DNA of 64,000 nucleotides. Source: Armatimonadota bacterium. Its GTDB lineage: Bacteria > Armatimonadota > SYMT01. A program made the position numbers and the translations under genes. Below are positions 4,888 through 33,860 of this stretch, one piece after another. The stretch spans positions 160,001 through 224,000 of the forward strand of contig JAWLHY010000001.1 of assembly GCA_041690135.1 (NCBI GenBank). The letters run 5' to 3'. Within the stretch, counting starts at the first letter, position 1. Every line of letters starts with the position of its first letter. Under the pieces are notes generated by a model, which saw only the letters and a list, made by a program, of their open reading frames with translations, was not told the DNA's origin and did not search any database.

Positions 4888-7842
4888 GTGGCTTTCACGC
4901 AGATGACGATCGAGCAGTTCGAGGCGCTGGTCAAGAACTACAACTGGAAGCGGAAGATCAACGCGGTGCACATGCACCACACCTGGCGCCCTAACCACGC
5001 GCAGTATCGGGGGCACGCGACCATCCAGGCGATGTGGCGCTTCCACACCCAGGTGAACGGTTGGAGCGACATCGCCCAGCACATCACCATCGCGCCCGAC
5101 GGGACGATCTGGACCGGCCGCGCCTGGAACACGCCCCCCGCAAGCGCCGCCGGGCACAACGGCAACAGCTCCGCCGGCCCGTTCATGTTCGAGATCATCG
5201 GGGATTTCGATACGGGAAAGGACCCGTTCAGGGGTCCCCAGCGCGAGACCGTGCTGCGGGTGATCGTGGCGCTGCAGAAGCGGTTCGGGCTCGCCCCGGA
5301 GACGCTCCGGTTCCACAACCAGATGTCCCCCAAGTCCTGCCCGGGCACGGCCATCAACTACCAGGCGTTCCTGAACGAGGTTCGGGATCTGCACGCGGCT
5401 CCGGCCGCGCGGGCCGCTGATGGGGGAGAAGAGGGCGGTCCGGATTGGGAGCTGATCGCCGCCGTCTCGAACGAGCGGTCGTTCGCGGACCCGGCGGACG
5501 CGGAGCCCCAGGAACACGGCACGGAAGAGTTCTTCTACGAGGCGGAAAGCCGTGGCCGGAGCGGCATGGACGTAGCGGCGCGGGGCGGTGGGGACATCGA
5601 CCTCACCGAGACCGTCCTGGACTTCCTCCGCCCCCACGTCATCAACCTGAACCAGGGGCAGTTCTCCGATGGCGGCAAGTTCCAGAGCGACGGGGGACAG
5701 GTCCGCGCGATCTTCGAGCAGCATTTGACCCAGGCGGTGGAAGACGCGGAGCGGGAAGGCAAGCTGCCGCTGCGCATCGTGTTCTACGCGCACGGGGGGC
5801 TCGTCTCCGAGTCCAACGCCCTCCGGATGGCATTCACCCACATCCAGTGGTGGAAGGCCAACCGGGAGCTCAACCGCCAGGGCGGCGGCAAGAACTACAG
5901 CGTCTACCCGCTCTACTTCGTGTGGGAGACCGGCTTCTTCGAGACGCTGGGCCAGCTCCTCTCCCGGATCCGGCTCCGCGGCCGGCGCGCCGTGCGGGAC
6001 GTGTTCGACTTTACCACGGACCCCGTGATCGAGATGGCGTCGCGGACGCTCCAGGGGCCGACGATCTGGGGCGGCATGAAGTTCAGCGCGGACCTGGCCT
6101 CCCGTCCCGAGGGCGGCGCCCGGGTCGTGGCGGAGATGCTCGCGGAGTTCTGCAGCCGGGACGAAATCCGCGGCAAGGTGGAGCTGCACGCGGTCGGCCA
6201 CAGCGCCGGCTCTATCTTCCACGCCCACTTCATCCCGGCGGTCCAGAAGGTCCTGGAGGACAAGCCCGAAACCGGCCTCACGGGCTTCAAAGAGGTCCAC
6301 TTCCTGGCGCCGGCGATCCGGGTAGACCAGTTCGAAAACCTGCTCGGCAACCGGATCGGCAACGGGCAGGCGATCGAGCGGCTGACCATGTACACCATGC
6401 GTCGCGACGTGGAGCGGGCCGACCACTGCGCGCAGGTCTACCGCAAGTCCCTCCTGTACCTCATCTACCACGCCCTGGAGCGGGACCCCCGCACCCCCAT
6501 CCTGGGGCTGGAGGAGTCGCTCTGGAAAGACCCGGATCTGCGTCGCCTCTTCGGCCTGACGGGCGGTGGGAGCCCGGGGGAGGTCATCTGGTCCCCATCG
6601 CCGTCGGAAGAGGGGCGCTCCGCCAGCCGGTCCCGCACGCACGGCGGCTTCGACAACGACGCCCCCACCATGAACAGCATCCTGCGGCGAGTGTGCGGGC
6701 TCGACGATAACGACCCGATCCACTCCTTCCCGGAGAAGCGCGAGCGGTCGCTCAACGAGTGGGAAGGCCAGGTGGACTGGCCGGAAGAGCTGGCCTTCAT
6801 GAGCGAGGCCCCCGGCGACCGGGACGGGGGGCAGGAAGGGGGTCCGGGCATCGGCCCCTTCCGCGGTGAAGCCGGCGCCCGCTCCGTGACCGGCACGCGC
6901 CGCGCGCTGTGCGTGGGGATCGACGAGTACCCCACCGCCCCGCTGGGGGGCTGCGTGGCCGACGCCCGGCTCTGGAGGGAGACGCTCGCCCGGCACCGTT
7001 TCGCGGAGATCCAGACCCTCTTCAACGGCGAGGCCACCCGCGGCGCGATCCTGGACCGGCTCCGGGCGCTGATCGCCGCCAGCCGGGCGGGCGACGTGGT
7101 GGTGTTCCAGTTCGCCGGGCACGGCACGCAGGCCCGCGACATGACGGGAGATGAGGCGGACGGCGACACGCCCGGCCTCGACGAAGCGATCTGTCCACAC
7201 GACTTCGGCGACGGCCGGCTCCTGATCGATGACGACCTGGCCGAGGTGTTCCGCTCGGCCCCGGCCGGCGTGGGCATCACCTGCTTCATCGACTGCTGCC
7301 ACTCCGGCACCATCACGCGGTTCGCCGTGGGCGGCCCCACGGGAGCCGCCTCCGGAGAGAAAGCGCGGTACCTGAAGCTCACGCCCGAACAGATGGCCGC
7401 CCACGTGCGGTTCCGCCGCGGGCTCGGCCGGTCGCGAGCCACCACCCACCGCGGCCCCCAGGAAATGCGCGAAGTGGTGTTCTCCGCCTGCAGGTCCGAC
7501 GAGGTCGCCCTGGAAAGCAACGGAAACGGCCACTTCACGGTCCGCGCCACCCGCGTGCTGCAGATGGGCGCCGACGGGATCACCAACCAGGAGTTCTACC
7601 GCCGCGTGCTGGAAGCGTTCGGTCCCGCCCCGCGGCAGCATCCGGTCCTGGACTGCTCGCCGGCCTCCCAGGAGTTCCTCCTGCTGGCCCCGGTAGCCGG
7701 CGGCACCCCGGCGTCCCCGGCGTCTCCCTCGAGTACGCCCTCGACCGCCGGATCTCCGCCCCGCGCCGACGGCGCATCCGGTGATCTGGAAGCCCTCTCC
7801 CGCGCCCTCCGCGCCGCCGCGGACGCCCTTCAGCGCCCGTAG
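4888..7842 (+). CDS. Fusion of PGRP/Amidase_2 N-acetylmuramoyl-L-alanine amidase, alpha/beta hydrolase and caspase-like C14 peptidase
   Basis: GAGGAGGT RBS then GTG at 4888; amidase HMHHT, WSDIAQH, FHNQ...KSCPG; hydrolase FYAHGG, GHSAG, THGGFDND; caspase ALCVGID, FAGHG, IDCCHSG, SACRSDE. Confidence 0.85.
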   Translation: MAFTQMTIEQFEALVKNYNWKRKINAVHMHHTWRPNHAQYRGHATIQAMWRFHTQVNGWSDIAQHITIAPDGTIWTGRAWNTPPASAAGHNGNSSAGPFMFEIIGDFDTGKDPFRGPQRETVLRVIVALQKRFGLAPETLRFHNQMSPKSCPGTAINYQAFLNEVRDLHAAPAARAADGGEEGGPDWELIAAVSNERSFADPADAEPQEHGTEEFFYEAESRGRSGMDVAARGGGDIDLTETVLDFLRPHVINLNQGQFSDGGKFQSDGGQVRAIFEQHLTQAVEDAEREGKLPLRIVFYAHGGLVSESNALRMAFTHIQWWKANRELNRQGGGKNYSVYPLYFVWETGFFETLGQLLSRIRLRGRRAVRDVFDFTTDPVIEMASRTLQGPTIWGGMKFSADLASRPEGGARVVAEMLAEFCSRDEIRGKVELHAVGHSAGSIFHAHFIPAVQKVLEDKPETGLTGFKEVHFLAPAIRVDQFENLLGNRIGNGQAIERLTMYTMRRDVERADHCAQVYRKSLLYLIYHALERDPRTPILGLEESLWKDPDLRRLFGLTGGGSPGEVIWSPSPSEEGRSASRSRTHGGFDNDAPTMNSILRRVCGLDDNDPIHSFPEKRERSLNEWEGQVDWPEELAFMSEAPGDRDGGQEGGPGIGPFRGEAGARSVTGTRRALCVGIDEYPTAPLGGCVADARLWRETLARHRFAEIQTLFNGEATRGAILDRLRALIAASRAGDVVVFQFAGHGTQARDMTGDEADGDTPGLDEAICPHDFGDGRLLIDDDLAEVFRSAPAGVGITCFIDCCHSGTITRFAVGGPTGAASGEKARYLKLTPEQMAAHVRFRRGLGRSRATTHRGPQEMREVVFSACRSDEVALESNGNGHFTVRATRVLQMGADGITNQEFYRRVLEAFGPAPRQHPVLDCSPASQEFLLLAPVAGGTPASPASPSSTPSTAGSPPRADGASGDLEALSRALRAAADALQRP

Positions 7843-7867
7843 CGCACTCCCGGCAATCACGCAGCGC

Positions 7868-7907
7868 ACAGGCAAGGCCCGCGCCACCCGGCACGGGCCT
7901 TGCCTGT
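7868..7907 (+). terminator. Hairpin after the protease operon
   Basis: ACAGGCAAGGCCCG ... CGGGCCTTGCCTGT inverted repeat just after the stop at 7842. Confidence 0.5.
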
Positions 7908-8033
7908 TGGCCCCTCTCCTCTGTGGCCGCCGGGGTGCGCATCCGTGTTGCGTCGCGGTAGAACAGTTCCTCCGAAAGGCCCACGGGAGGCAGTGGTCAC
8001 CTTCGCCGACGGACATCCGGCGAAAGCGCACTC

Positions 8034-8063
8034 TTGACGCCCGTTCGGTCCGCTGTCTATAAT
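8034..8063 (+). promoter_or_regulatory. Sigma70-type promoter of the tRNA-Ala locus
   Basis: TTGACG (8034-8039), 18-bp spacer, TATAAT (8058-8063). Confidence 0.75.
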
Positions 8064-8101
8064 GTGGCGTCGCTGGGGACCACCCCCAGTAGCCCCACCC
8101 G

Positions 8102-8128
8102 AGGGCCTGTGGCTCAGTTGGGAGAGCG
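8102..8128 (+). repeat. Exact copy of the tRNA-Ala 5' end (acceptor 5' strand plus D arm)
   Basis: AGGGCCTGTGGCTCAGTTGGGAGAGCG identical at 8102-8128 and 8179-8205. Confidence 0.9.
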
Positions 8129-8179
8129 TCCATCCGGAAGTTCCGGGGATCGCCAGCTATCACCATGACAACCAGATAA

Positions 8180-8252
8180 GGGCCTGTGGCTCAGTTGGGA
8201 GAGCGCCGCGTTCGCATCGCGGAGGTCAGGGGTTCGAATCCCCTCAGGTCCA
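8180..8252 (+). tRNA. tRNA-Ala (anticodon CGC), CCA not encoded
   Basis: Acceptor GGGCCTG/CAGGTCC with G3-U70 pair, anticodon arm CCGCG-TTCGCAT-CGCGG, T loop GGTTCGAATCC. Confidence 0.95.
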
Positions 8253-10241
8253 TCATTGTAAGACCCGCACCGTCAGGTGCGGGTCTTTTTGCATTGTCGG
8301 GGCCGCGGTGTACCGGTTGCATAACCTTTGGGGTTGTGGAGGGATGCCTCCTACCCCTACGTCTGGCTGGTTCGAGGGACGAAGGGGCTTGCCCAGCAGC
8401 GACTTCCATATCGGGATCTGCTCCAGCGTTAACAAGCCCAAGGCCTCCTTCTCCAGTTCCTGGCGGGCCTGGAGCATCCTCTGGCGGAGGGCGCCGGGGT
8501 TGCCGGTCGCCATCGCCTGGCTCTGGAACGCCTCCATCTGCTGTTGCAGCCGTCGCATGATCTCCTGGAATTGCTGTCGCTGCTCCGGCGTCAGGCCCAG
8601 GGCCGTGCCCACGCGCGGATCGCCCAGCGCGAAAGCCCCCTGCTGCTGCAGCTCGATCTCCCACAGCCGGCCCTGCTGCGCCGGGGTCAACAGTTGCTGC
8701 AGAACATTCCGCAGCCTCCGATCCGCGGTGGGACGGTACTCCTGGATCCTTGCGCCGGGATCGGGCCGTGGTCCGCCCTGGAACAGGTCCCGCAGCTCGC
8801 CACGGATCTCGGCCAGGGTGGGGCGCAGGCGCTCTCTCTGAACGGGCGTAAGCCGCAGGTCCGATTGGACTGCCGGCAGATCGATCAGGAACGCGGTACC
8901 CAGAAGCTCGTGCAGCGGCGGCAGACCTCCGGGATCGGCGGCGGTGGAGGTGAGGCCGGCGTAGGGCCTTCCGAGGAAGCCGTAGCGGACCTCCGTGTTC
9001 ACATTCAGGTTGCGGCCCGCCGGCAATCGTGCCACCAGGGGCTCCCCGCCGTTCCCACCGGAGGTCCAGCGCAGGACCTCTTTCCCCTGGGCCGCCAGTG
9101 CGAGGTGCTGGATGCGAGCCCCCTCGAACTTAAGGAAACCTTCCCACTTCAGGCGAATGGTGTGGTGGAAGACGGCGCCGTCCGGTCGGGGGGCCGGCAC
9201 CGCGGCCACATCCGAAACGCCGTCCACCCGGTAAAGGTCGGGTGTCCCCGGCGTCCGCGTGGCCCACAGCTCGTAGCACTGCGTCTTTCCGTCAGCTTCC
9301 GTGGCGCCCGCCAGCGGCTGCACGTCGAGCTCTCCCAGGTAGGCGCGGGAGACGCACTGTCGCGCGAAAGCATCGGGGAGCCGCACGCGCTGTTCCCCGG
9401 CGCCCCGCAGCGTTTCGGCCACCCGCACCTGCAGCTCGGTCGTCACCTCGAAGCGGTCCTGTGCGTAGTCTTCCTGGTTGACCGGGTTGGCCACAAGGGA
9501 TCCCCGGGCGTCCACGGCCCTCCCGAACACCTGGACGTCCAGCGTTCCCGCGGGGAGCCGGCGCTCCGCGGGGCAGGGGGTGCCCTCGTGGTCCTGGGGG
9601 AGCGGCCGGATCGCTGGTGCAGCGGGGAGGTCTCCCACGGAGACCGTGGGATAGCGTTGGAACCGGCGGGTCGCGAAGGGGGCACTGCCGTCTGGGTGCG
9701 CGCGGAACCATCGCCGGGTCTCGTCGAGGAACGCCTGGACCTTTGCCTCGTTCTCGAACGTCAGGCTCCAGGCCAGCACCTGCCCGTCCCCGTTGAGGAC
9801 CGCCAGCCCCTGGGGCGCAGGAGCGGAGCGGCCGGCGGCGGCGAGCACTCGCCCCTCGGGATCGGAAGGCGGCCGGTGCAGGCGGACGGCGCCGACCGAG
9901 ACGGGAATGAACTCCGCGTTGACGCGGCGGATCACGGTGGGATCGCTGAACACCGCCTCACGGACGGCGCCCGCGAACACTCAACAGCGTTCCTCCTGGG
10001 GGTCCGCATTGATGAAGGCCCACAGCAGCACCGGCTTCTGCTGCTCGCGGGCCTCACGCAGTCCCTGCAGCAGGCACTTCCGCCAGGCGATCGCCCGCCA
10101 CGTGAGCTTCGGCGGACTTAGCGCCTCGATCTCCGCGGTGAGTGAGGCGAGCGTCTTCTCCGGCGCAGTGGGTCCGGCCAGCGGCGCTCCCAGCCCAACC
10201 CCGGCCACCGCAATCAGTCCGATCCAACCCAGGGCGCGCAT
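8253..10241 (-). CDS. Predicted selenoprotein: secreted SelN-like thioredoxin-fold protein (C-U motif) with C-terminal LTxxQ (Spy/CpxP-like) repeats
   Basis: ORFs 9981-10241 and 8253-9980 are contiguous in one frame across a single TGA (9981-9983): KPVLLWAFINADPQEERC-U-VFAGAVREAVFSDP; SECIS-like hairpin follows; N-terminal signal peptide. Confidence 0.75.
8260..8290 (+). terminator. Intrinsic terminator after the tRNA
   Basis: AAGACCCGCAC-CGTCAG-GTGCGGGTCTT followed by a T run. Confidence 0.8.
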
Positions 10242-30612: not shown

Positions 30613-31275
30613 TCATCCGAAGTGCAAGAGGATGGCCCGGACGAGATTTTCCGCGGGTTGGGCGCCAGTGAGAATCCGCCCGCGGTTGAGGATGAAGGCG
30701 GGGACTCCGTCCAGTTCCAGGAAACGAGCCTCTTGCTCCTGCTCGCGAATGTCCGCCAAGCCCTCTTCGGTGTTGAGGAAATGCCGGACCTCATCGGGAG
30801 GTAATCCTGCGGCGGAGGCGAGAGTTGCCAGCACCTCCGGGTCGCCGATATCCCGGCCGTCGGTGAAGTAAGCGTGGAAGAGGTTCTCCACCAGGGCATC
30901 CGCCAGGCCTTCCTGCTGGGCGAGGGCCACCAGGCGATGAGCGTCCAGCGTGTTGGGAGTCCATTCCATGCGGTCGAATGCGAATTCCAGGCCGTCTTCC
31001 CGTCCCACTTCCCGCACGCGGGCATCCAGGGCCTGGGAGCGTTCCCAGCTTCCGAACTTAGCGGTGCGGTAGGCCCTCCGCGAAACACCCTCTCTCGGCA
31101 TTTCCGGGTTCAACTCAAAGGGGCGCCAGACGATCTCCAGGTTCACCTCACCCCGAAGCTGGTGCCGGGTCGCCTCCAGGCGGCGCTTGCCGATATAGCA
31201 CCACGGGCAGATGAGGTCAATGAAGACTTCGACGGTTACTACGGGTTGGTCGTATTCCGAGCTCAGGTAAGTCAT
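30613..31275 (-). CDS. DsbA family (FrnE-like) dithiol-disulfide oxidoreductase
   Basis: DLICPWCYIGKRRL, PFELNP, GVPAF, GAQP. Confidence 0.9.
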   Translation of the reverse strand: MTYLSSEYDQPVVTVEVFIDLICPWCYIGKRRLEATRHQLRGEVNLEIVWRPFELNPEMPREGVSRRAYRTAKFGSWERSQALDARVREVGREDGLEFAFDRMEWTPNTLDAHRLVALAQQEGLADALVENLFHAYFTDGRDIGDPEVLATLASAAGLPPDEVRHFLNTEEGLADIREQEQEARFLELDGVPAFILNRGRILTGAQPAENLVRAILLHFG

Positions 31276-31363
31276 GGGGCCCCCGCTGGTATATACACTT
31301 TTGGGAGCGGCAGTGCACGCCAGTTCCCAATCCCCGGCCTGTGCTTCACGGATGAGGATGATG

Positions 31364-32068
31364 ATGGAAAAGATCGTAAGGGCCAGCCTGCTGGCCTTCC
31401 CTCTGGTGGGCCTGCTGCCTGCGCCGGCCTATGCCCAGACGGCCTCCGGCTGACCATTATGACCCGCCAGCGGTTATTCCGCGCAAGGCGGGAACTCCAT
31501 CGGTACGGTGGGGGCCACAGTTCAAAAAGGACACCTGTTCTTCTCAACCATGCACTCCGAAGGTCTCGCGGGTGAGACCGAGACGTTCGTGCGCTACGGG
31601 GTGAGCCGCCGCCTGGAGATGGGCTTCGGCTACCTGTGGAAGCAGGGAATCGTTCGTCCCCTGGCGAGCTACCTGTTTGTCACCGAGGAGAAGAGCCGGC
31701 CCGCACTGACGGGCGGGCTGATGTACGACTCCCTCGGTGGCGGGAGGCAGGGGGTATTCGTCAGCGCTTCCAAGGGTTTTCGCAAGACACCGTTGGGCGT
31801 TCCACTGAGCCTCTACCTGGGAGGCACGCAGATCTCGGGGGAGGATCATCCGCGCTTGATCGCGGGCCTGAGCGTCCCCGTGAACCGCTGGTTGACCGCG
31901 TCGGTCCAGTACGATGGGAAGCACCCGCACCTGGGCCTGACCGCGAAGGTGGGCAGCATCCGCGGCTCCGATCTTCGGGTGGGAGTCGTGGCGGCGGAAG
32001 GGGACAAGATCGGTCCCATCATCGCCGTGGGCCTTCCACTCGGCCCCCGTGAGCGCAAGGGTCACTAA
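31364..32068 (+). CDS. Predicted double-selenocysteine (UxxU) secreted, probably outer-membrane beta-barrel protein
   Basis: GAGG RBS, signal peptide ending AYA, then QTASG-TGA(31451)-P-L-TGA(31460)-PASGYSAQ... in frame with ORF 31508-32068, which has alternating beta-strand patterns. Confidence 0.65.
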
Positions 32069-32372
32069 TCGTGTGGGGGAGAACCTTAACAGCACCGGGA
32101 CCAGAGCGGGTACGGATCACCAGTGCCCGCCACCGGCCCTCCCACGGGTTAAATCCCTGGGCCGGCTGAACGAACTCCGCACCCACACCCACTCCGTGGG
32201 GACCCGGGCGTAAACCTTATTGGGCCGGCGCGGTCTCCCCGCGCCGGCCCATCGTTTAGGGTGGGCAACTCCGTCGATCCGGATTCCGGGCATTTTTTGC
32301 CCGACGAGGGCGAATGCGAAAGGCAACTCCCGCAAGTCGGGGCTGGAGTAAAATAACCGGAGGGAGTGAACC

Positions 32373-33860
32373 ATGAGCGATCGCCAGCGAAGCGTTGTCC
32401 GGGCGCCGGATTTTCCGGTGGGGTTGGAGTGGCTGAATGTGGACCGGCCTCTGTCCCTGAAGGACCTGCGGGGAAAGCTGGTCATCCTGGATTTCTGGAC
32501 ATTCTGCTGCATCAACTGCCAACACGTGCTGCCCCAGCTCCGGCAACTGGAGGAGCGGTTTCCGGAAGAGCTGGTGGTGATCGGGGTTCACTGCGGCAAG
32601 TTCCACGCGGAGGCGGAAACGTACAACGTTCGGCAGGCGGTGATGCGTCACGACGTCCGGCATCCGGTGGTGAACGACCCGAAGTACCTGCTGTGGCGAG
32701 CCTACACGGTCCGCGCCTGGCCGACGATCGTGCTGATCGATCCAGAGGGGCGGGTGCTGGGCTCGATGTCCGGAGAGTTCGACGCCAACGCGATCGGCAG
32801 CCTGCTGGAGCAGATCATCGCGGACTGCGACAAGAAGGGCCTGCTCAACCGGTCGCCGCTGGAGTTGACGCTGGAGCGGCGGAAGCTGATCGAGACCACA
32901 CTGCGGTACCCAGGGAAGGTGCTGGCGGATCCCGCCGGGCGCCGCTTGTTCGTGACGGATACGGACCACCACCGGATTGTCGTGTTCGGCCTGGACAACG
33001 GCCGGGTGCGCCACGTTTTCGGTAGTGGTGAACCGGGTCTTACCGACGGAACGGCGGCCCGGGCGCGCTTCCACTCGCCCCAGGGAATGGCGCTGAGGGG
33101 CGACTCCCTCTATGTCGCGGATACGGAGAACCACGCCATCCGGCGCCTTTCCCTGGACGGCCGGACGGTGCAGACGGTCGCCGGAACGGGAGAGCAGTCG
33201 ACTCCTCTGCCGGAAGCCGGCCCGGCCCGCGCGACCCGCCTCAACTCGCCCTGGGACCTGGAGTGGGTTGGGGATACCCTGTACGTCGCAATGGCGGGCA
33301 GTCACCAGGTCTGGGCCTATCATCCCCAGGGAGGCGTGATCTCCCACGTGGCGGGGGATGGTCGCGAAGCCCTCAAAGACGGTCCCCGGCTCAATGCACG
33401 CCTGGCGCAACCTAGCGGGCTGGCATGGGACGGCGAGCGGCTCTGGATCGCGGACAGTGAGACGAGCAGTCTGCGGACCGTGGGACTGGAAGAGGGGGGA
33501 GAGGTCCGGACCTGGATTGGGCAGGGGCTGTTCGAGTTCGGGGATGTGGACGGGGATCGCGCCACGGCGCGCCTTCAGCACGTGCTGGACGTGGCGGCGG
33601 GGAACGGCCGGATCTACGTCGCGGACGCCTACAACAACCGCCTCAAGGTGCTGGACCCGCGCACGGGACAGATCCGCACCCTTTCCGGCAGCGGAGAACC
33701 GGGCTTCGAGGACGGTTTCGCCGGCGAAGCGTGCTTCTGGGAGCCGGGGGGCATCAGTTTTGCGGGGGACCGGCTGTACGTGGCGGACACCAACAATCAC
33801 GTGATTCGGAGCGTGGAACTGCCGTCAGGACGGGTGGAGACCCTGGACTTGCGTGATTAG
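32373..33860 (+). CDS. Thioredoxin-like plus NHL-repeat beta-propeller protein (NHLRC2/SOQ1-like)
   Basis: LDFWTFCCINC, AWPT, repeated LYVADTENHAIR-type NHL motifs. Confidence 0.9.
   Translation: MSDRQRSVVRAPDFPVGLEWLNVDRPLSLKDLRGKLVILDFWTFCCINCQHVLPQLRQLEERFPEELVVIGVHCGKFHAEAETYNVRQAVMRHDVRHPVVNDPKYLLWRAYTVRAWPTIVLIDPEGRVLGSMSGEFDANAIGSLLEQIIADCDKKGLLNRSPLELTLERRKLIETTLRYPGKVLADPAGRRLFVTDTDHHRIVVFGLDNGRVRHVFGSGEPGLTDGTAARARFHSPQGMALRGDSLYVADTENHAIRRLSLDGRTVQTVAGTGEQSTPLPEAGPARATRLNSPWDLEWVGDTLYVAMAGSHQVWAYHPQGGVISHVAGDGREALKDGPRLNARLAQPSGLAWDGERLWIADSETSSLRTVGLEEGGEVRTWIGQGLFEFGDVDGDRATARLQHVLDVAAGNGRIYVADAYNNRLKVLDPRTGQIRTLSGSGEPGFEDGFAGEACFWEPGGISFAGDRLYVADTNNHVIRSVELPSGRVETLDLRD

Follow-up and report, generated by a model that had tools for sequence, protein, structure and literature searches.

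The stretch of DNA analysed here, referred to as the window, comprises 64,000 nucleotides (nt) of contig JAWLHY010000001.1 from an Armatimonadota bacterium (assembly GCA_041690135.1, positions 160,001 to 224,000 of the forward strand), and it contains a gene whose reading frame runs through two TGA codons (Table 1). Sequence comparison indicates that the locus holds a genuine gene, whose product is an exported protein with two selenocysteines (Sec, U) and a porin-like barrel. An earlier note on this DNA had described a ribosome-binding site, an ATG and a clean signal peptide leading to QTASG-TGA-CCA-TTA-TGA-CCC and then to an open frame, and the sequence reads exactly so: after the predicted signal peptide MEKIVRASLLAFPLVGLLPAPAYA come QTASG, TGA, CCA TTA, TGA and CCC. 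ATG codons occur in frame at 31352, 31358, 31361 and 31364, and the exact start is uncertain because of the first three. Signal peptides were judged by eye from their n, h and c regions together with the AxA rule; a lipoprotein signal was rejected, as there is no cysteine at position +1. When TGA is translated as U, the frame encodes 234 residues, contains just two TGAs (U30 and U33), which lie 9 nt apart, and ends with TAA at 32066-32068, the motif appearing in the precursor in the context QTASG-U-PL-U-PASGY.

Reading with translation table 11 splits the frame into an open reading frame (ORF) of 59 amino acids (aa; 31274-31453) and a second ORF of 186 aa, which starts from GTG at 31508 and has no signal peptide, and the public gene call P0002 begins at M63 of the read-through protein. 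A pseudogene or two separate genes were considered and rejected. The perfect GC-rich stem-loop 3' of the stop codon is likely a terminator, which suggests that the selenoprotein gene is monocistronic. Because this stem-loop has no T-run it was not listed by the terminator scan, and the promoter and terminator scan of the locus returned no promoter and a single weak terminator-like site at 32278-32290.

Table 1. Features of the selenoprotein locus and of related loci; positions without a locus prefix refer to the window
Feature	Position	Strand	Basis or remark
Shine-Dalgarno-like GAGG	31354..31357	+	6 nt 5' of ATG 31364; read from sequence
Complete coding sequence, predicted selenoprotein precursor, 234 aa, Sec30 and Sec33, stop TAA	31364..32068	+	Translation with TGA=U; orthologues
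Predicted Sec-type signal peptide, 24 aa, ends AYA, then Q	31364..31435	+	Cleavage site inferred from AxA rule
UGA 1, predicted Sec30, first residue of UxxU	31451..31453	+	Kept in 10/10 orthologues; Cys in CxxU/CxxC relatives
UGA 2, predicted Sec33, last residue of UxxU	31460..31462	+	Also Sec in CxxU subfamilies
Public gene call P0002, 172 aa, starts at M63	31550..32068	+	100% identity, 74% coverage of read-through protein
Predicted 12-stranded beta-barrel domain, residues 57-225	31532..32038	+	AlphaFold2, pLDDT mostly >90; Foldseek
Hairpin H1, 6 bp, 5-nt loop, candidate SECIS part or spacer helix	31477..31493	+	93% of cells paired
Hairpin H2, 8 bp, loop G-U-N closed by G-C, candidate SelB-binding SECIS	31495..31513	+	97.5% of cells paired
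Perfect 12-bp GC-rich stem-loop 3' of stop, likely terminator	32222..32250	+	Read from sequence
Cys-rich exported genes	L028:1883-2314, L030:1773-2213, L033:1752-2204, L025:69-551; L025:2864-3304, L030:5829-6314; L028:2415-2864, L030:2349-2897	n/a	Three scanned against Pfam, the others grouped with these by BLAST

pLDDT, predicted local distance difference test; SECIS, selenocysteine insertion sequence.

Evidence for selenocysteine decoding in the family and in the genome

A word-indexed search yielded 42 close homologues with identities of 48-100%, P0002 among them, and every one of them covers just 68-81% of the read-through protein. Their lengths range from 163 to 190 aa, except for P0014 (313 aa), which also starts with MHSEGLAG and extends further at its C-terminus, and their database names are 'hypothetical protein' or none. 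Gene calls shortened at the N-terminus in 42 out of 42 close homologues are the pattern expected from a conserved in-frame stop codon. The corresponding DNA was read for 10 orthologous loci, namely 5 genome contigs, titled as Armatimonadota metagenome-assembled genomes (Chthonomonadales, Armatimonas, Armatimonadaceae, Fimbriimonadales and Capsulimonadales), and 5 metagenome contigs; L036 and L038-L040 come from genomes already represented by L026-L028 and L030, and these genomes were counted once. In all 10 loci a signal peptide ending in AxA is followed in frame by Q-x-x-x-x-U-P-[L/I]-U-P-A-S-G-[Y/F]. Thus the signal peptide whose conservation upstream of the annotated starts was to be checked is present throughout, and the view that two UGAs in this arrangement are unlikely as random nonsense mutations is borne out by the same combination of signal peptide and UxxU in each readable orthologue. 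One metagenome orthologue (L035) carries a frameshift just after the UxxU motif (L035:673 onward), probably a sequencing or assembly error.

An exhaustive search of representative sequences added 39 remote matches, 12 of which are long enough to reach the N-terminus. In nine of these 12, C-P/T-x-C falls on precisely the two Sec columns; one more is ambiguous, and two lack cysteine at this site. A profile scan detected family members in 198 of the 401 genomes of the same phylum, and all named relatives belong to the Armatimonadota. Several forms of the motif can be distinguished. U-P-[L/I]-U is the form of the orthologues, and U-[P/T]-[G/S]-U-P-G-E-G defines a paralogue subfamily (L017, L018, L020, L021, L024, L025, L049-L054 and second copies in L027 and L030), of which the member L016 reads C-P-G-U. 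Among the loci read from the phylum scan, UTGU is found in 6 and C-P-[L/M]-U in 13, and C-x-x-C is present in 12 of the 12 stop-free copies (L063, L072-L082) that lie outside one degenerate clade. The earlier note had asked for homologues with CxxC, CxxU or UxxC at the site, and CxxC and CxxU relatives do align at the same columns; one clade has Gly and Ser/Thr there. The family is large, unannotated and common in its phylum, and its conserved hallmark is a [C/U]-x-x-[C/U] motif at the predicted mature N-terminus.

The genome encodes the machinery for selenocysteine incorporation, which had been named as a check of the proposal. The matches to selA, selB and selD score 566.6, 383.6 and 369.6 bits, respectively, each above the curated NCBIfam cut-off, and ARAGORN places a tRNA-Sec with anticodon tca at C1:1152265-1152363, directly after selA-selD. 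The genes selA and selD and the tRNA-Sec form a single cluster (G000:C1:1149453-1152363), and selB is located on another contig (C8:51343-53220). The selD gene of this genome has one in-frame TGA itself and thus probably encodes a selenoprotein. Within the window TGA terminates 16 of the 39 long ORFs with high GC content at third codon positions (GC3); it is therefore a common genuine stop codon, there is no genome-wide reassignment of TGA, and a general reassignment was rejected on these grounds. Four of the 17 TlpA-like thioredoxin matches of the genome also contain an in-frame TGA (C5:203601-203993, C6:281024-281383, C7:221206-221613 and C19:84729-85118) and may represent further selenoproteins of the Prx/TlpA-like kind.

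In the phylum scan, 61 of the 63 genomes that have a TGA-containing family match, among the matches listed (about half of all), possess selA at E<=1e-60, compared with 215 of 401 genomes overall, in a count in which a TGA 'inside' a match may be a terminal stop and related genomes are not independent. The two genomes with a TGA-containing match and without selA at this threshold are 92% and 98% complete. In parallel, 9 of the 12 CxxC copies occur in genomes without a selA match at E<=1e-60.

A conserved structured RNA element is present 3' of the UGAs. In the alignment of the 10 orthologues, hairpin H1 begins 14 nt past UGA 2, and one of its pairs alternates between C-G and U-A (4 versus 4 sequences); in hairpin H2, 6 of the 8 pairs display double-sided compensatory changes, the counts for H2 being identical within an alternative fold. 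The covariation of H1 and H2 taken together was reached by 0 of 500 shuffles, and sliding the pairing partners against each other lowers pairing to 40-54%; for H2 by itself, 0 of 500 shuffles attain the score and slid controls have 38-52% of cells paired. Selection appears to act on the RNA here, since the amino acids that H2 encodes are variable. The other subfamilies also have a hairpin, with G and U in its loops, which begins 12-19 nt past their last UGA. L044 and L045, which are degenerate, and the Cys copy L063 have lost the hairpin, and L015 keeps a remnant of H2. The proposal that both UGAs are Sec codons thus draws on their conservation in 10 of 10 orthologues, on CxxU and CxxC homologues, on the complete machinery, on the downstream RNA structure and on the co-occurrence with selA.

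Predicted barrel and genomic neighbourhood

A structure model obtained with AlphaFold2 from an 18-row alignment had a mean pLDDT of 82.3 and a predicted template modelling score (pTM) of 0.76, and displayed 12 strands between residues 57 and 225 joined by short loops. When the model was compared by Foldseek with the PDB, six matches at E<=0.001 were obtained, and each of these is a structure of the porin from Rhodopseudomonas blastica. Among structures of similar size, the best were KdgM (TMt 0.62), a designed 12-stranded transmembrane barrel (TMt 0.59) and NanC (TMt 0.44). Searches of the read-through protein and two paralogues against Pfam and NCBIfam gave no match for the barrel domain (0 families at E<=1), and a sequence profile search of the PDB found nothing meaningful, the best hit being a designed barrel at E=0.36. 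The earlier note had called the protein a non-thioredoxin and probably an outer-membrane barrel. The first part agrees with the 12-stranded model, with the lack of any thioredoxin-family match in Pfam or NCBIfam and with the position of UxxU in an arm predicted to be unstructured. The second is in line with the strong Foldseek matches, which are all outer-membrane barrels, and with an Omp85/BamA protein encoded in the genome (PF01103, 133.6 bits, G000:C6:169966-170940). Judged by the model, the protein looks like an outer-membrane barrel. Members of the UxxUPGEG paralogue subfamily end in Phe, like classical outer-membrane proteins.

The upstream neighbour of the selenoprotein gene is a DsbA-like gene in divergent orientation (30613-31275, minus strand). 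The downstream one, past the stem-loop, is a gene (32373-33860, plus strand) for a protein of 495 aa (Trx-NHL) that has a CINC motif in its N-terminal thioredoxin-like domain as well as NHL repeats, an architecture resembling that of NHLRC2-type proteins; neither product has an obvious signal peptide. Just the thioredoxin-like part of the Trx-NHL protein finds relatives in related loci, and these are the YHS/TlpA partners of the paralogues. Since they partner paralogues and not the orthologues of the window gene, no operon with the window flanks is claimed.

In 4 of the 10 orthologue loci (L029, L031, L033 and L034) the gene immediately 5' of the barrel gene, in the same orientation, encodes a MerR-family regulator; the best NCBIfam matches of these regulators are MerR, CueR, ZntR and CadR-PbrR, with E about 1e-25 and all below cut-off. 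A Thioredoxin_3/glutaredoxin-like domain is fused C-terminally to three MerR regulators (L031:320-985, L033:212-940 and L034:2134-2883), and in L026 a Thioredoxin_3 gene is located downstream of the barrel orthologue. The fused domain has a GCPLC motif, with the same CPLC tetrad as the arm of the barrel protein. Beside the gene in the genome studied here no MerR-Thioredoxin_3 orthologue was found, and the two MerR-family matches are located on other contigs.

An exported protein with YHS and TlpA/ResA-like thioredoxin parts adjoins the gene of the paralogue subfamily in 7 of 9 loci, and in L027 and L030 a pair of YHS/TlpA gene and paralogue stands beside the orthologue of the window gene. The genome's own paralogue (G000:C3, about 595300-596254; L024:1021-1941; L066 about 7335-8255) starts with a signal peptide and a YHS domain (E=1.4e-7), which are followed by the motif U-P-S-U-P-G-E-G and a barrel ending in Phe, and its neighbours are a gene resembling those of outer-membrane proteins, a gene for a Cys-rich exported protein and one for an SO_0444/ArsP_1-like permease. 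Small exported Cys-rich families with CC pairs, some ending in ...RGPP...RAPP, were also observed beside barrel genes (Table 1), and a Pfam scan of three of these proteins (L028:1883-2314, L028:2415-2864 and L025:2864-3304) gave no match. Elsewhere in the window, the segment 46001-50000 has a GC content of 0.50-0.56 versus about 0.65 in the rest and may be foreign or RNA-gene DNA.

Proposed mechanism and rival readings

We consider it highly probable that a single gene occupies the locus and encodes an exported selenoprotein, in which the UGAs are read as Sec and an outer-membrane barrel carries an arm that may be a soft-metal or redox site. The ribosome would read the UGAs at 31451 and 31460 as Sec, aided by hairpins H1 and H2 and by SelA, SelB, SelD and tRNA-Sec. 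After cleavage of the signal peptide the mature protein would begin with QTASG-U-P-L-U and consist of a flexible arm of about 30 residues, which may face the periplasm, and of a compact 12-stranded porin-like barrel in the outer membrane. The two selenols might bind a soft metal such as Cu(I), Hg(II) or Cd(II) with high affinity, or else make up a diselenide that switches with the redox state, and in that event the barrel could be an outer-membrane channel that handles metals or is gated by them. Periplasmic TlpA-like/YHS proteins of related loci might keep the arm reduced there, and a heavy-metal-type MerR might switch the system on. The putative metal role of the arm, taken by itself, is put forward tentatively, as a proposal that could well turn out either way. 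The fullest version, for which our confidence is lower and which is best regarded as speculative, would make the protein the founding member of a selenium-dependent metal-handling system of the outer membrane, widespread in Armatimonadota, serviced by YHS/TlpA proteins and controlled by MerR, in which the N-terminal diselenolate UxxU arm of a minimal 12-stranded channel captures or gates a soft metal such as Cu(I) or Hg(II) and two UGAs are decoded with one unusual two-hairpin SECIS.

Several observations weigh against this interpretation or parts of it. Regarding the RNA, the single-sequence fold of the downstream region is ordinary (z = -1.61, 15 of 200 shuffles fold as well), and an Rfam search of 31300-31700 found no SECIS match, just two chance rows of long non-coding RNAs. 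The distance between a bacterial SECIS and its UGA is typically roughly 16-37 nt; the H2 loop is farther away, about 44 nt from UGA 2 and 53 nt from UGA 1, and H1 is at the typical distance but has no G-U loop. Regarding the protein, the signal peptide and the N-terminal arm were modelled with low pLDDT (43-73), and the C-terminus (...GLPLGPRERKGH), like those of the orthologues, which end in R, P or H, does not have the aromatic residue of the signal for the beta-barrel assembly machinery (BAM). The nearest stop-free clade (L015, L044-L046, from genomes G031, G233, G192 and G375; L015 at 38% identity) has G-P-L-[S/T] at the site, and its genomes retain selA and UxxU paralogues; as Gly and Ser/Thr occupy both Sec positions there, the motif can be lost. 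Finally, in the window the selenoprotein gene has no MerR, YHS or exported TlpA neighbour, and so the metal role draws on orthologue and paralogue context only.

The same selenoprotein barrel might instead use its UxxU arm as a redox centre, which would cycle between diselenide and diselenol with electrons from periplasmic TlpA-like reductases and would either reduce a substrate at the outer membrane or open and close the pore according to the redox state. CxxC, CxxU and UxxU are classic redox motifs. Most of the families in the selenoprotein table of a 2026 review are redox proteins (PMC13188914, Table 1). The TlpA-like thioredoxins that are conserved partners of the paralogues, the DsbA-like and Trx-like genes that flank the window gene and the Thioredoxin_3 domains fused to or beside regulator genes in orthologue loci would also fit. 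On the other hand, the motif is located in a flexible arm and not in a thioredoxin fold, the products of both flanking redox genes of the window appear cytoplasmic by eye, and metals are suggested alike by YHS domains, by MerR regulators of the heavy-metal type, by the Cys-rich exported proteins and by the SO_0444-like permease. A primarily redox role of the arm appears less likely to us than a metal role. The two roles are compatible, as a TlpA-type reductase can keep a metal site reduced.

It is very improbable that the TGAs are true stops and that the real gene is the ORF of 172 to 186 aa from 31508 or 31550, the upstream ORF being what is left of a decayed gene or a small gene of its own. 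Table 11 yields exactly this split and all public gene calls agree with it; however, a signal peptide is needed for a barrel to get to the outer membrane, the interval from the UGAs to the called start is conserved at the protein level in 10 of 10 orthologues, called starts fall at varying places after the motif (17 homologues aligned), CxxC forms are continuous ORFs of the same architecture and TGA-bearing forms track selA. Equally remote is the possibility that near-cognate tRNAs or an altered code insert Trp, Cys or Gly at the UGAs. UGA is the leakiest of the stop codons, and the clade with Gly and Ser at the two positions would fit; however, TGA genuinely ends many window ORFs, homologues have Cys and not Trp at the site, the complete Sec machinery is accompanied by a conserved hairpin and TGA forms among the matches listed are nearly confined to selA-positive genomes.

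As a gene for an exported protein with two selenocysteines, the locus would add a selenoprotein family in a fold class, the small outer-membrane barrel, and in a compartment in which selenoproteins are rare, with one of very few UxxU motifs. It would also reveal a systematic annotation error, since 42 of 42 close database entries are devoid of the signal peptide and the active motif, and with gene calls shortened to this extent catalogues would undercount the selenoproteome of the phylum. Two UGAs 9 nt apart that share the downstream hairpins offer a test case for how much spacing a bacterial SECIS tolerates. UxxU, CxxU, CxxC and lost-motif forms within one family provide a natural comparison of selenium and sulfur in a metal or redox site that would be exposed to the periplasm.

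Comparison with known systems

The suggestion that the protein might belong to an undescribed family has held up in the sources consulted, and the selenoprotein family is apparently so far undescribed. Table 1 of the review contains 119 prokaryotic selenoprotein families, and no entry of that table matches the window protein (PMC13188914). Nor does any model of NCBIfam 20.0, including NF041115, match the window protein or two paralogues (P0001, P0045 and P0047; E<=1), and the literature on UxxU, on Armatimonadota or on outer-membrane barrel selenoproteins, in full-text searches, yielded no description of such a family.

With two outer-membrane barrel entries of the table, a TonB-dependent receptor of the FCYXU motif type (NF049945) and the GSU2204/MtrB-PioB family (NF041027), the window protein shares the prediction of an exported selenoprotein that forms an outer-membrane beta-barrel; those are large barrels with one Sec within other domains or motifs, whereas the barrel of the window protein would be small, with 12 strands, and both Sec would lie in an arm at its N-terminus (PMC13188914). 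UxxU is found in the table in a Prx-like oxidoreductase, in an HMA-like metal-binding protein (NF041115) and in a protein of the FmdB family (PMC13188914). These known UxxU proteins resemble the window protein in having two Sec spaced like CxxC, and NF041115 offers a precedent for a UxxU soft-metal site, but their folds are HMA-like, zinc-ribbon-like or thioredoxin-like, in contrast to the predicted membrane barrel, and no sequence matches were obtained. The NCBIfam model related to SelL did not match the read-through protein P0001. For SelL, which has a thioredoxin-like fold, the likeness is one of motif analogy only.

The best structural likeness at similar size is to the 12-stranded porins of the KdgM/NanC type (4fqe, TMt 0.62; 4pr7, 0.59; 2wjr, 0.44), whose substrates are acidic sugars. 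Sequence identity to these is 10-11%, the window protein has no Pfam match to any porin family, and KdgM and NanC are not known to have an N-terminal arm with Cys or Sec. Copper outer-membrane proteins of the PcoB/CopB type have, in front of the barrel, a flexible N-terminal arm in the periplasm that binds metal; these arms are rich in Met and His and are not known to contain CxxC or UxxU. In the maturation of copper sites by TlpA and Sco, the reduced state of a Cys-based copper site is maintained by a TlpA-type reductase. No homology to these systems was detected; the window protein would follow the same architectural logic, namely that of a metal-binding arm in front of an outer-membrane barrel and of a TlpA-type partner that keeps such a site reduced.

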